64,000 nt of DNA from the UHGV virus genome UHGV-1370141. The stretch is one strand, 5' to 3'. The stretch is from a virus. Below are positions 9,288 to 24,673 of this stretch, one piece after another. Position numbers and translations under genes: made by a program. Position 1 is the stretch's first letter. Every line of letters starts with the position of its first letter. The notes below the pieces were generated by a model that was not told the DNA's origin, searched no databases, and worked only from the letters and a program-made list of their open reading frames with translations.

Positions 9288-9341
9288 TTCTATTCTCCTA
9301 AAGGTCGAAAAAATAAACGCCCTCTAGAGAGGGCCAATCAG

Positions 9342-9545
9342 TTATAGCGCTTTAATAAAACGTTTTACTGCCTGAACCTCTGGGCACTGAGAAACTTCTT
9401 TTCGCTTGTGCGCTATGATGGGTGTCACTAAGCAAACGACATCAGCGGTTGGTGTTTCCACAGTGACCACCATATCTTCGGTTGTCTGGAATTCTTTCTT
9501 GGATTGGAAGCGGTTCATGATAATTCTCCTAAACGTAATAAACAT
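9342..9545 (-). CDS. hypothetical protein (67 aa)
   Basis: ORF track; 5' leader hairpin GAGATTAC-ACA-GTAATCTC directly upstream, no obvious SD. Confidence 0.45.
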   Translation of the reverse strand: MFITFRRIIMNRFQSKKEFQTTEDMVVTVETPTADVVCLVTPIIAHKRKEVSQCPEVQAVKRFIKAL

Positions 9546-9568
9546 GTCGTAAGAGATTACTGTGTAAT

Positions 9569-9593
9569 CTCACTAAGGTAATATATATCTGAG
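9569..9593 (-). promoter_or_regulatory. AT-rich promoter-like motif (class 1)
   Basis: CTCAGATATATATTACCTTAGTGAG on transcribed strand, ~25 nt upstream of 9545 start. Confidence 0.45.
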
Positions 9594-9606
9594 TTTATTT
9601 TTAATC

Positions 9607-9655
9607 GAAAAAAAAAAGAAAAGGGAGAACCACCCCATTACAGGGTGGTTCTCTT
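9607..9655 (-). terminator. terminator hairpin
   Basis: A-run then GAGAACCACC-loop-GGTGGTTCTC, downstream of 9672 stop. Confidence 0.55.
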
Positions 9656-9671
9656 ACTAAACAATCAGAGA

Positions 9672-10937
9672 TTATTTAGATTTTTCGTAAGCAGCGATAC
9701 CTGCGGAGATATAACCGTTCAGACCGCCAGCCAGGTGTTTCTGAGTAGAAGCAATAGCTTTCTCTTGCAGAGACAGAGCCTGGTTAATACTGGTGATGTA
9801 ACGACGCGCGGTACGCACGTTTTCGGTCAGTTCCGGTTTTTCATCGATCTTGACTTTGTCGATTTCTTTCAGCAGCTTATCGATGCTGTCTTCGAAAGAC
9901 TTACGTGCGCTTTCAACTTTACGATAATCCTGAACGTTCTTCTCAATCTGTTTACCCACTTCGTTGAAGAAGGCATTGATTTTAGCCAGTTCGCCAACAG
10001 ACGGAGTTTTCACGCTGGTTTCAACGCTGTTTTCAGATTCGACGAAAGTAGAGGAGAAACCGCCTTCGTTATCGTACTCGGTCTTCACAGCCATGTTGCC
10101 GAGTTTGAAGTTCTTAAGATTGTCTTGTTTAGCCAGTTCGCTGAAATCAGCTTTCAGGCTGTCAATCTTAGCACCGTTACCTTTAGTAACATCTTCAACC
10201 AGGCCAGCGGCTTTAGAGGCCATAGAAGGCACTTTAGAGCTGTAGAAAGAGGAAACTTGGCTCAGGATGCCTTTCAGTTTCGCGACGTCGTCACCAACGA
10301 ATTTACCGTCGATGGACAGAGATTTAATGAAACCGCCAGAGATTTCATCTTTCTTCTGTTTGCCCAGCTTACGGATGATCGCGTCGTTTTTCTTCGCACG
10401 TGCCTGGATAGATTTACCCTGGTTGTGGAATTTCAGCCAACGATCTTTGATCTTACGACCCTGTTCTTTCAGCCAATCAAGGATACGTTTCATGAAGGCT
10501 TTAATGTCTTCCCACAGGGATTCACGAGCAACCTGACGGCGGTTACGAGAACCGTAGGATTCGTGAGCAACGGAAGAACGGTGTTCGAAGTTCCAGCGAG
10601 AACGGATGGATTCCTGAGCAACGTCCAGCGCTTTAGCAGCGTCGTCCGGCATGTCTTCTTCAGCGTCCATCGGCTCTTCGCCGTCTTCACCGGCATCTTC
10701 GCCGTCAGCAGCAGCCTGAGCTTCGTCCAGGACTTCCAGCTGAGCATCGGTTTCGTCGCCGTCTTCGGCCAGCAGCTCTGCGTCTGCGTCCATCGCTTCG
10801 ATCGGTTTGGTGTCATGCTCGATATCGGCCAGAGTACCTTCTACAGATTCTGCTGGCAGTTCGATGCCGTCTGGAACTACAGTAGAAGTAGACTCCATAG
10901 ACTCACGAGCAATTTTGTTTTTGTAGAAATTCGCCAT
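9672..10937 (-). CDS. acidic protein, paralog A (421 aa)
   Basis: conserved termini shared with 11020..12291 (MANF.K...ARESME / GKQKKDEISGGFI / NGY..AGI.AYEKSK); D/E-rich N-terminal third. Confidence 0.7.
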   Translation of the reverse strand: MANFYKNKIARESMESTSTVVPDGIELPAESVEGTLADIEHDTKPIEAMDADAELLAEDGDETDAQLEVLDEAQAAADGEDAGEDGEEPMDAEEDMPDDAAKALDVAQESIRSRWNFEHRSSVAHESYGSRNRRQVARESLWEDIKAFMKRILDWLKEQGRKIKDRWLKFHNQGKSIQARAKKNDAIIRKLGKQKKDEISGGFIKSLSIDGKFVGDDVAKLKGILSQVSSFYSSKVPSMASKAAGLVEDVTKGNGAKIDSLKADFSELAKQDNLKNFKLGNMAVKTEYDNEGGFSSTFVESENSVETSVKTPSVGELAKINAFFNEVGKQIEKNVQDYRKVESARKSFEDSIDKLLKEIDKVKIDEKPELTENVRTARRYITSINQALSLQEKAIASTQKHLAGGLNGYISAGIAAYEKSK

Positions 10938-11019
10938 TTTAAGCTTTTCCTCTAAGGGGAACGCGTTGTTCCCCTGATGATTTATTTCAAGAACTGTACG
11001 GAACTACGAATCTAAATGA

Positions 11020-12291
11020 TTATTTAGATTTTTCGTAAGCACCGATACCAGCACCCAGGTAGCCGTTCAGACCGCTAATAACGGTGTTAGCAACGTAGCT
11101 AACGGCGCGGTTCAGGGTCTGGTAGTTCTTCACAGACCAATCAGCAGCTTGACGTGCATTACGCAGGCCATCCCACTTGCTCTGGTCTTTTTCGGTATTC
11201 AGTGCGGTAGCAGCTTTCTCAGCAGCCTGTTGCAGCTTCACGATTTCAGCGTCATAAGCACGGAAATCTTTCAGTACAGCTTCGAAGCCTTTACCGATTG
11301 CTTCCAGAGCAGAAGCAGCGCCAGCCATTTCAGAAACGGACGGAGTTTTCACGTCTTTATCTTCAGACGCGTCACCGGTGCTCATGAATGCAATTGCAGT
11401 GAACTTGTGGCCGCCAGCCAGTTCTTTAGTACCAGACTGAACGTATGCGTTGCCCGGCAGAGCCAGCAGTTTGGACGCATCACCTTTTTCAAAGTTCGGC
11501 AGAGTGTGCAGTTTAGAAGCCGCCTTACCAAACAGTTCTACCGGCTGATCGCCACGCATTGCTTTGAATGCGTCGTCGTCACCTTTGCTCACAGCGGTCA
11601 CAGCTTCACCAGCTTGTTTTTCCAGAACACTGATGGAACCTTTAGCTTTGCCAGCGGTAACTTCTTTCGCGATAGCGATAGAGCCAGCAGCATCGAATTT
11701 ACCTTCGATAGACAGCTTGGTGATAAAGCCACCAGAGATTTCATCTTTCTTCTGTTTGCCCAGCTTACGCAGCATTTCCTGATATTTCTTCGCACGTTTC
11801 TGTGCGGTCTTACCGACGTTGAAATATTTCAGTTTCAGGTCTTTGATCTTCGCAATCACTTCTTTACAGAACTGAATGAAACGATCGTAAAGATCTTTCA
11901 GGGTTTCTTTCCAGCCTTCCTGCGCAGCAGCAGTCATGCCACGGCCACGGCGATAGGATTCACGAGCCAGTTTGGTACGTTCCAGGCACCAACGACGTGC
12001 GATGGATTCCTGGGCCACTTCGTGCAGGGCAACCGCTTCTTCCGGCATTTCTTCACCGTTAGCAACGGCTTCTTCCGCCTGATCGATAGCGTCTTCAGTA
12101 CGCTCAGTATCGGCGGCCAGAGTTTCACCGTCAGTTTCCAGCTGATCCAGTTCGCCATCCATAGAGGCTACTTCTGCAAGCTGGACGTCCAGGTTCTCTT
12201 CTGCCGGTTCAACGTTGCTGATACCGTCGATTACTTCATCGGCCGCTTCCATTGATTCACGAGCGGCGCGAGTTTTTGCGAAATTTGCCAT
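11020..12291 (-). CDS. acidic protein, paralog B (423 aa)
   Basis: tandem paralog of 9672..10937. Confidence 0.7.
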   Translation of the reverse strand: MANFAKTRAARESMEAADEVIDGISNVEPAEENLDVQLAEVASMDGELDQLETDGETLAADTERTEDAIDQAEEAVANGEEMPEEAVALHEVAQESIARRWCLERTKLARESYRRGRGMTAAAQEGWKETLKDLYDRFIQFCKEVIAKIKDLKLKYFNVGKTAQKRAKKYQEMLRKLGKQKKDEISGGFITKLSIEGKFDAAGSIAIAKEVTAGKAKGSISVLEKQAGEAVTAVSKGDDDAFKAMRGDQPVELFGKAASKLHTLPNFEKGDASKLLALPGNAYVQSGTKELAGGHKFTAIAFMSTGDASEDKDVKTPSVSEMAGAASALEAIGKGFEAVLKDFRAYDAEIVKLQQAAEKAATALNTEKDQSKWDGLRNARQAADWSVKNYQTLNRAVSYVANTVISGLNGYLGAGIGAYEKSK

Positions 12292-12350
12292 TTCGTTTAT
12301 TTCCTTTGGTTATATAACCCAATTACACGCCCCTAGAATGAGGGGCCCCC

Positions 12351-12911
12351 TTAGGGACGTGCGATTTTCAAAAACACTGCTAACGACGAGATCATGTCGG
12401 ACAACCCGTTCGGGCGTGTCATCCAGCGTGCCAGCAGTTCATGGTCTGCATAAGATAAAAGACGTTTGCTACACTCAACAGACTGGTGAGCGGAACCCAT
12501 ATTACGTACAGTACCCCGGCGACCAAACGCAGCAGCAAGAAGACGTGCACCCAATGAGCCCGTCTGTTCAACGTTCTTCGTATTGCGAACATCATTCATG
12601 TACGACGACAGCAATACGGACCACTGTCCTAACGTCACGGTGCGTCGTTTACCATCAAGCAGGAAGGCTACGCTTTCGTTATAAAACGTATTAAAGGTAA
12701 ATCCGACCTGCGGATATTCGTCATATAATACCTGCTGCACAGAGTCAGCAGCTAACAGACGAAAGTACGGCAATACAACCGCACACGCTTCCAGCGTTTT
12801 GTGAATAAGCTCGTCATCGTGTGTGTCGATTGGGTTTTTTGATAAAATCGACATATAGGTTTTAATGCGCTCTACGGCCACATTAAAATCGGGACTATCG
12901 TGCTCAAACAT
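12351..12911 (-). CDS. hypothetical protein (186 aa)
   Basis: ORF track. Confidence 0.55.
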   Translation of the reverse strand: MFEHDSPDFNVAVERIKTYMSILSKNPIDTHDDELIHKTLEACAVVLPYFRLLAADSVQQVLYDEYPQVGFTFNTFYNESVAFLLDGKRRTVTLGQWSVLLSSYMNDVRNTKNVEQTGSLGARLLAAAFGRRGTVRNMGSAHQSVECSKRLLSYADHELLARWMTRPNGLSDMISSLAVFLKIARP

Positions 12912-19266: not shown

Positions 19267-19318
19267 AAAAAAATAAAAGCTACCCTACTCCCGAAAAGGA
19301 GTAGGGTACTTCTTTTTT
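19265..19318. terminator. bidirectional terminator between convergent genes
   Basis: A-run, TACCCTACTCC-loop-GGAGTAGGGTA, T-run. Confidence 0.6.
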
Positions 19319-24632: not shown

Positions 24633-24673
24633 GAAAAAATAAAAGCTACCCTACTCCTCTCGGGAGTAGGGTA
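24633..24673. terminator. terminator between convergent genes
   Basis: A-run, TACCCTACTCC-TCTCG-GGAGTAGGGTA; stem identical to the 19281 hairpin. Confidence 0.55.

Follow-up and report, generated by a model that had tools for sequence, protein, structure and literature searches.

The tandem gp53 and gp54 genes of Salmonella phage SPN3US encode "Paralog family A," two proteins present at >600 copies each per head, whose N-terminal 15 residues are identical (MANFVKSKLARESVE) and were likened to the capsid-targeting sequences of T4 by Ali et al. 2017; a gp243 mutant loses both of them (PMC5694885). Mass spectrometry has shown that the prohead protease gp245 cuts gp53 after ARE-12, AQE-95, and AQE-125, and gp54 after AQE-124 and ARE-137 (PMC10052503, Table 2, Figure 3 legend); the N-terminal peptide is (E)GWKETLKDLFER in mature gp53 and (E)SLWDDIK in mature gp54 (PMC10052503). 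When the protease is deficient, the uncleaved proteins account for most of a T=1 inner shell in the SPN3US capsid (PMC7552025); the mature proteins stay in the virion and are then ejected (PMC5694885, PMC7552025). Here we describe a similar gene pair at positions 9,672 to 12,291 of a 64,000-nucleotide stretch of the virus genome UHGV-1370141 (the whole of this stretch is referred to as the window). We consider it probable (roughly 0.88) that the two genes form a late unit of an SPN3US-like jumbo phage related to phiKZ, encoding two major internal head/ejection proteins of the PF12699 family.

In nucleus-forming jumbo phages, the PF12699 proteins rank among the most abundant components of the virion; in phiKZ and Goslar hundreds to thousands of copies are packaged and several of the proteins are ejected with the DNA (bioRxiv 10.1101/2022.09.17.508391; 10.1101/2024.03.24.586471; 10.64898/2026.04.21.720040), and their role is described as "a key unsolved mystery" in the 2026 paper on the Goslar structure. 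The window proteins share the PF12699 domain and a predicted extended helical-bundle fold with phiKZ gp93, gp94, gp95, gp97, gp162, and gp163 and with Goslar gp53-gp58. These phiKZ and Goslar inner-body proteins are high-copy, capsid-internal, and processed by a prohead protease near the N-terminus (phiKZ gp93, for example, is cut at SLE-13; PMC5694885). The systems differ, however, in that phiKZ and Goslar carry five to eight paralogs with unequal copy numbers whereas the clade described here has exactly two, in the protease motif (S/A/G-x-E in phiKZ but A-x-E at the SPN3US sites), and in sequence, identity being below BLAST level: tblastn matched only SPN3US-like phages and two Vibrio phages. 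The T4 internal proteins IPI, IPII, and IPIII, a comparison drawn by Ali et al. 2017 (PMC5694885), are an analogy: they too are high-copy head-internal proteins that lose an N-terminal leader of ~10 residues after x-x-E and are ejected with DNA. No sequence or family relation to them was found (Pfam and PHROG matches were only to phiKZ-type internal head families), and while the small T4 proteins lose a leader, a long acidic propeptide of >110 residues is predicted to be removed here besides the leader.

Family membership was observed directly. Against a PF12699 (phiKZ-like phage internal head proteins) cut-off of 27, the upstream protein scores 245.5 bits and the downstream protein 196.3 bits, covering positions 3-387 and 2-387 of the 387 in the model, and both match phrog_2497, "internal head protein" (E 1e-147 and 2.7e-118). 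The upstream protein shows 69% identity to SPN3US gp53 and 74% to gp70 of Erwinia phage Asesino, with the same position in the gene order, and the downstream protein groups and aligns with SPN3US gp54 and the Asesino downstream paralog. The pair are the syntenic orthologs of SPN3US gp53 and gp54. The shared order in the window, SPN3US, and Asesino runs from dihydrofolate reductase, a few genes downstream of the pair, through gp54-like, gp53-like, and phiKZ gp91-like genes to structural proteins, the gp91-like and virion structural genes lying immediately upstream as they do in SPN3US and Asesino; the head-gene neighborhood gp50-gp51-gp52-gp53-gp54 agrees in order with SPN3US, Asesino, and eight other phages. 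Thus, the locus resembles that of SPN3US in Pfam family, tandem order, head-gene neighborhood, leader type, and mapped A-x-E positions, and the mutual identity of the two paralogs is about 34-35% in each phage. It differs in belonging to another lineage, since in a phage genome collection the regional DNA matches SPN3US-like jumbo phages only and the best of the named phages, Asesino, reaches 77% identity over the region, and also in that the N-terminal 15-mers are 11/15 identical (fully identical in SPN3US) and that AHE-126 replaces AQE-124.

As for copy number in related phages, among the matches listed by tblastn, nearly all of the ~60 SPN3US-like phage records have two matching places each, as against a single place in each of the two Vibrio phage records. 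A hidden Markov model built from 24 family members matched only the two genes in the 64-kb window, and no third paralog was found there. Both proteins are members of an already well-described kind of internal head/ejection protein, a finding that is real but ordinary; the gain is in annotation, two "hypothetical" acidic paralogs being settled as major internal head/ejection proteins of an SPN3US-like jumbo phage.

An earlier reading of this DNA (the original prediction) had described a tandem pair of acidic paralogs with conserved termini and a diverged, D/E-rich middle. The open reading frames (ORFs) do stand at exactly the coordinates it gave, though on the minus strand, and the two proteins align over their full length (one against the other by BLASTP, 35% identity, E 2e-56), with similarity that extends beyond the low-complexity acidic stretches. 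All of the motifs that it quoted are found in both proteins: MANFAKTRAARESME / MANFYKNKIARESME at the N-terminus, the internal block RKLGKQKKDEISGGFI..LSI.GKF, and the C-terminal block GLNGY..AGI.AYEKSK. In upstream-protein numbering, identity is 73% at residues 1-15, 25% at 16-90, 47% at 91-125, 54% at 126-200, 25% at 201-315, and 22% at 316-405, rising to 78% over the C-terminal 18 residues (406-423). The middle (~residues 200-315) is indeed diverged but is not acidic; the D/E-rich part is the N-terminal third, where residues 31-90 hold 21-23 D/E against 1 K/R in the two proteins. Each protein as a whole is only mildly acidic (isoelectric point, pI, 5.1-5.3), since its propeptide is acidic (pI 4.1-4.2) but the mature part that follows is basic (pI 9.4-9.5). 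The features of the locus are collected in Table 1.

Table 1. Features of the internal head protein gene pair and its surroundings (window coordinates)
Feature	Position	Strand	Details
Upstream gene, gp53-like	11020..12291	minus	423 aa; transcribed first; PF12699 internal head/ejection protein
Predicted propeptide, gp53-like	11917..12291	minus	residues 1-125; leader to ARE-12, acidic stretch, AXE at 95, 111, 125
Predicted mature gp53-like	11023..11916	minus	residues 126-423; 32.1 kDa; pI 9.37
Downstream gene, gp54-like	9672..10937	minus	421 aa; paralogous PF12699 internal head/ejection protein
Predicted propeptide, gp54-like	10521..10937	minus	residues 1-139; leader to ARE-12, then AQE-109, AHE-126, ARE-139
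Predicted mature gp54-like	9675..10520	minus	residues 140-421; 31.4 kDa; pI 9.48
Identical tract, gp53-like gene	11732..11769	minus	38 nt encoding RKLGKQKKDEISG; identical to 10336-10373; probable gene-conversion tract
Partner tract, gp54-like gene	10336..10373	minus	38 nt; identical to 11732-11769
Intercistronic GC-rich hairpin	10955..10975	minus	stem AGGGGAAC/GTTCCCCT, 8 bp; 5-nt loop aacgc; -13.4 kcal/mol
Shine-Dalgarno AGAGGA, gp54-like gene	10948..10953	minus	invariant in 13 phages; 10 nt upstream of ATG at 10935-10937
Classical intrinsic terminator closing the two-gene unit	9612..9653	minus	11-13 bp stem, then CCTTTTCTTTTTTTTTT; identical in L003 and L006
Candidate promoter/regulatory element	12308..12349	minus	hairpin GGGGCCCCT..AGGGGC, GCGTGTA, GGTTATA(TA)ACC; directly upstream of gp53-like gene

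The A-x-E motif is kept at every SPN3US gp53 and gp54 cleavage position mapped by mass spectrometry, cleavage itself being predicted here by homology. In the gp53-like protein ARE-12, AQE-95, and AQE-125 fall in invariant alignment columns and carry the same residue numbers as the mapped SPN3US sites, and AQE-125 is followed by GWKETLKDL, matching the published semi-tryptic peptide of SPN3US gp53. In the gp54-like protein the acidic stretch is longer by two residues, which accounts for an offset of +2: the mapped AQE-124 corresponds in the alignment to AHE-126, and ARE-139 is followed by SLWEDIK, which matches the SPN3US gp54 maturation peptide at ARE-137. The neighboring gp50 homolog also retains its mapped SPN3US site, as AQE. 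These positions divide each protein into parts of opposite charge, the gp53-like propeptide having a pI of 4.21 (32 D/E vs. 12 K/R) and the gp54-like propeptide a pI of 4.10 (39 D/E vs. 12 K/R); in the mature part of the gp54-like protein there is a single A-x-E site, at the extreme C-terminus. The comparison supplies G126 and S140 as the predicted mature N-termini.

The N-terminal leader can be followed well beyond this clade. Both window paralogs begin with a 12-residue leader, MANFxKxxxARE, that ends in A-x-E. A profile search of 1.84 billion representatives returned 661 relatives at E<=0.001, and among the 135 near-full-length representatives at 50% identity, 123 (91%) have an [AGS]xE motif ending at residues 8-17 (mode 10-13), compared with 41% after shuffling; a short leader that ends in a protease motif thus characterizes the family as a whole and could aid the design of packaging-signal experiments. 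The original prediction had suggested, speculatively, that the conserved termini are targeting or processing signals of the kind found in capsid-targeted internal proteins; this held for the N-terminus, given the mapped cleavage of the orthologs, and found no support for the C-terminus (see below).

Conserved blocks in tandem paralogs might also be kept alike mainly by recurrent gene conversion, in which case the N-terminal, C-terminal, and internal blocks would say nothing of targeting. Short conversion-like tracts are indeed present at this locus. The longest identical run between the paralogs is 38 nt (Table 1), while in codon-column shuffles the longest run averaged 13.9, with 27 as the 99.9th percentile and 0/5000 reaching 38; in the close relative L003, the upstream gene differs at 8 of the 38 nt and the downstream gene has the window version. 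At the N-terminus, the downstream gene of L003-L005 matches the upstream gene at 46-47 of its first 47 nt, a near-identity that the window and L006-L008 do not have, and these 47 nt contain 16 of the 215 positions at which the downstream genes of the window and L003 differ. The longest identical run in SPN3US (23 nt) is likewise at the N-terminus. We nevertheless regard conversion as a very improbable main cause of the shared blocks. The short basic/hydrophobic leader ending in [AGS]xE (at residues 10-13) recurs in 91% of the distant representatives, many of them from phages with other paralog sets, so that conversion within one genome cannot explain its conservation, and at the C-terminus G407, G410, G415, A418, and Y419 are invariant in orthologs from different genera. 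Short conversion tracts, running in both directions, probably help to homogenize conserved blocks that are already constrained, but they cannot alone explain the conservation of these blocks across genera. Evidence of ongoing short-tract conversion between the paralogs could aid experiment design, and it leaves the identity of the proteins unchanged.

The C-terminal block reads differently from the leader. Its AYE/KSK fits A-x-E in the window, and we considered it as a conserved protease site, but E420 is variable and is replaced in orthologs (AYKKSK, AYAKQK, AYGKK, AYGNSK), so the C-terminal A-Y-E is no conserved cleavage motif. Transmembrane character of this Gly/Ala-rich end was also rejected, there being no transmembrane segment in either protein (maximum 19-residue Kyte-Doolittle means of 0.99 and 0.56). 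In the AlphaFold2 model of the gp53-like protein (predicted local distance difference test, pLDDT, 76.9; predicted template modeling score, pTM, 0.73), a short helix at residues 4-14 is followed by a low-confidence unstructured linker, and then by long helices at 34-77, 84-100, 119-175, 319-366, and 371-417; residues 177-315 form a beta-rich insert, and the C-terminal motif is modeled at pLDDT >90 at the end of the last long bundle helix. In addition, phiKZ gp93 with a C-terminal FLAG or mNeonGreen fusion is still packaged (bioRxiv 10.1101/2024.03.24.586471; 10.1101/2022.09.17.508391). Taken together, the helix-end position, the lack of transmembrane character, and the tolerated gp93 tags lead us to read the block as structural: the model suggests, most simply, that the conserved Gly/Ala-rich motif is the structural end of the last bundle helix.

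Structural comparison of this predicted fold agrees with the family assignment. Foldseek returned 98 matches at E<=1e-3 among viral models (BFVD), with template modeling (TM) scores up to 0.73, and all 98 are jumbo-phage (phiKZ-like) internal head or virion structural proteins. The structure searches turned up no experimentally solved member of the PF12699 family; the best PDB matches, which were not significant, were mostly ClyA, MakA/B/E, SmhA/B, and IpaD. Such matches could be taken to mean that the basic mature domains are membrane-active proteins with a ClyA/MakA/type III secretion system (T3SS)-tip architecture (a long helical bundle plus an inserted beta "head") that, once ejected, remodel lipid of the host inner membrane to make the early phage infection (EPI) vesicle in which the incoming genome is sheltered, and at the infection site phiKZ gp93 does co-localize with puncta of a membrane dye (bioRxiv 10.1101/2024.03.24.586471). 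The lack of a hydrophobic segment speaks against such an activity, and we think it distinctly unlikely; the accompanying notion that the acidic propeptide acts as an intramolecular safety catch, holding these domains soluble and inert until prohead cleavage, is just as doubtful.

In the mechanism that we favor, that of precursors packaged, cleaved, and ejected as internal head proteins, the late unit consists of a conserved upstream element, the gp53-like gene, a hairpin with a Shine-Dalgarno sequence, the gp54-like gene, and a classical terminator. Each precursor of ~46 kDa would carry a 12-residue leader, an acidic and largely helical propeptide (to residue 125 or 139), and a basic mature domain of ~31-32 kDa, for which the model predicts an elongated bundle of helices into which a beta-rich domain is inserted. 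By homology to SPN3US, the precursors would co-assemble in very high copy in the prohead and form most of a T=1 inner shell; a prohead protease of the gp245/phiKZ gp175 family would then cut after each A-x-E, the acidic fragments would leave, and the basic mature proteins would remain with the packaged DNA and be ejected into the host along with it. Copy number and a role of leader and propeptide in prohead incorporation are likewise taken over from experiments on SPN3US and phiKZ.

A rival reading takes the two as true scaffolding or core proteins, which organize prohead assembly and are then fully degraded and expelled, with no later role; a scaffold function had been part of the original prediction. 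The ordered T=1 inner shell that gp53 and gp54 form under the T=27 coat in protease-deficient, "mottled" SPN3US capsids fits such a role, as does a production profile that is the same as that of the major capsid protein (PMC7552025), and the precursors contain many protease motifs. Full degradation, however, is contradicted by the retention of mature gp53 and gp54 in SPN3US virions at >600 copies each (PMC5694885; PMC10052503) and by the phiKZ homologs gp93, gp95, and gp97, which have been seen entering the cell with the DNA (bioRxiv 10.1101/2022.09.17.508391), while the near-absence of A-x-E from the mature part of the gp54-like protein fits a protected mature domain. A pure scaffold is therefore unlikely, and of the suggestion there stands the inner shell before cleavage and not the loss of the proteins after it; a dual role (scaffold-like before cleavage, cargo after) is compatible with the ejection protein interpretation.

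Several points weigh against the favored interpretation. For this particular phage, cleavage, packaging, and ejection are predictions extrapolated from SPN3US and phiKZ. The A-x-E motif is not enriched in the two propeptides over what their composition predicts (7 vs. 4.2 expected, p 0.09; 6 vs. 3.3, p 0.085), and the site assignment therefore depends on positional homology and not on motif counting, which we rejected as uninformative for processing sites (p about 0.09). The prohead protease gene (SPN3US gp245/phiKZ gp175, MEROPS S80) is absent from the 64-kb window, and no search for it went beyond that window; by synteny with SPN3US it should lie far outside, and its presence in the phage is supported indirectly by the AQE kept at the mapped site of the gp50 homolog, a neighboring substrate. 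Targeting by the 12-residue leader is a proposal, even for SPN3US, and the function of PF12699 proteins after ejection is explicitly called unknown (bioRxiv 10.64898/2026.04.21.720040). Finally, the function of the intergenic hairpin is at the stage of a proposal.

The hairpin between the genes had been described as present but not a classical terminator, and both parts of that description are borne out by its 8-bp stem and the lack of a U-tract. After the hairpin the gene strand reads T-AGAGGA-AAAGCTTAAA-ATG with no U-run, and the tail (TAGAGGAAAAGCTT) has 1 T in 10 nt; most of the other hairpins in the window have 5-9 T after the stem in at least one orientation, and the terminator scan reports the intergenic hairpin on the opposite strand only. 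It is the sole perfect GC-rich hairpin in the window that both abuts a Shine-Dalgarno sequence and lacks a T-rich tail. A hairpin occurs at the same place in 13/13 phages of several genera (7-10 bp, -12.6 to -19.1 kcal/mol, z -3.2 to -6.5), ending 0-1 nt from the invariant AGAGGA in all 13 (1 nt in the window). Its sequence varies among lineages, with stems GGGGAAC/GTTCCCC, GGCGGTAC/GTACCGCC, GTGGGGC/GCCCCAC, and GAGGGGCC/GGCCCC. Covariation was counted with the Shine-Dalgarno sequence as anchor, which replaced RNAalifold on a MAFFT alignment, where only 4 pairs were recovered because the stems are out of register; counted in this way, the pairs at positions -4, -7, and -8 from the Shine-Dalgarno sequence show three to five pair types, including fully compensatory changes.

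The hairpin is like a Rho-independent terminator in being a GC-rich, intergenic stem-loop downstream of a stop codon, and unlike one in its missing U-tract, in standing 0-1 nt from the Shine-Dalgarno sequence, and in that the unit's real terminator (11-13 bp plus a T-run, 9653-9625) follows the second gene. An intrinsic terminator was accordingly rejected, most genuine terminators in the window having a long perfect stem, typically of 11 bp, and a T-rich tail, and the absence of a U-tract together with the true terminator after the second gene leads us to regard the hairpin as a conserved RNA (or DNA) structure. As a candidate role, it most likely serves mRNA stability or processing, or insulates translation initiation of the second gene. 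A non-canonical role at a 3' end is possible as well, since in the related phage 201phi2-1 only 52/132 mapped 3' ends were classed as factor-independent terminators (PMC11512511). A covarying hairpin abutting the ribosome-binding site of the second gene could aid experiments on stoichiometric expression of the pair.

The element upstream of the gp53-like gene lies directly after the stop of the gp52-like gene (TAA-GGGGGCCCCT..(T)CTAGGGGCGTGTA..GGTTATA(TA)ACC). Its columns are invariant or nearly so across 12 SPN3US-like phages of several genera while the flanking coding DNA has diverged, and in this invariance of sequence it contrasts with the covarying intergenic hairpin. It may be a promoter or regulatory site of this very highly expressed pair, for which it is a candidate. 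Recurrence of GGGGCCCCT..AGGGGCGTGTA or of GGTTATATAACC elsewhere in the window did not go beyond chance, and the element occurs once. A repeated-looking terminator module was seen at 19281-19308 and 24647-24673 on the minus strand, with an identical 11-bp stem (TACCCTACTCC/GGAGTAGGGTA) and nearly the same T-rich tail.

Between close relatives (9672-10937 compared with 3001-4266 of L003 and L006), the gp54-like gene diverges at about twice the rate of the gp53-like gene, with 83-87% vs. 91-95% nucleotide identity, and its differences are concentrated in the part that encodes the beta-rich insert (up to 28 per 60 nt). This may reflect diversifying pressure on an ejected protein, e.g., from defense systems that, like Juk, respond to ejected factors by sensing them. 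Next to the pair on its downstream side lies a variable cassette slot (9288-9671 in the window; L003:4264-5113, L006:4267-5116). In relatives a 213-aa gene follows gp54, its product being very diverged between L003 and L006, whereas the window has an unrelated 67-aa ORF there (9342..9545). We considered this ORF as a remnant of the 213-aa gene, but the resemblance is limited to 10 C-terminal residues (E 0.02) and we treat it as a replaced cassette. The flanks of the slot are conserved, with GATATATATTACC upstream and a terminator downstream; GATATATATTACC resembles the phiKZ early-promoter consensus, TATATTAC.

On the other side of the pair, a 186-aa protein (12351-12911, minus strand) matches PF25618 (phiKZ vertex-binding protein gp91) with 29 bits, the cut-off being 27, and a capsid-vertex protein gene thereby adjoins the internal head protein genes. 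Near-identical phages were present as single contigs of ~220-227 kb in dozens of assemblies labeled Salmonella enterica, Shigella flexneri/sonnei, and E. coli, as well as in gut or environmental metagenomes (best cluster 99% identity, next 87%), which suggests that this is a jumbo phage of enterobacteria that is widespread and travels with isolate cultures.

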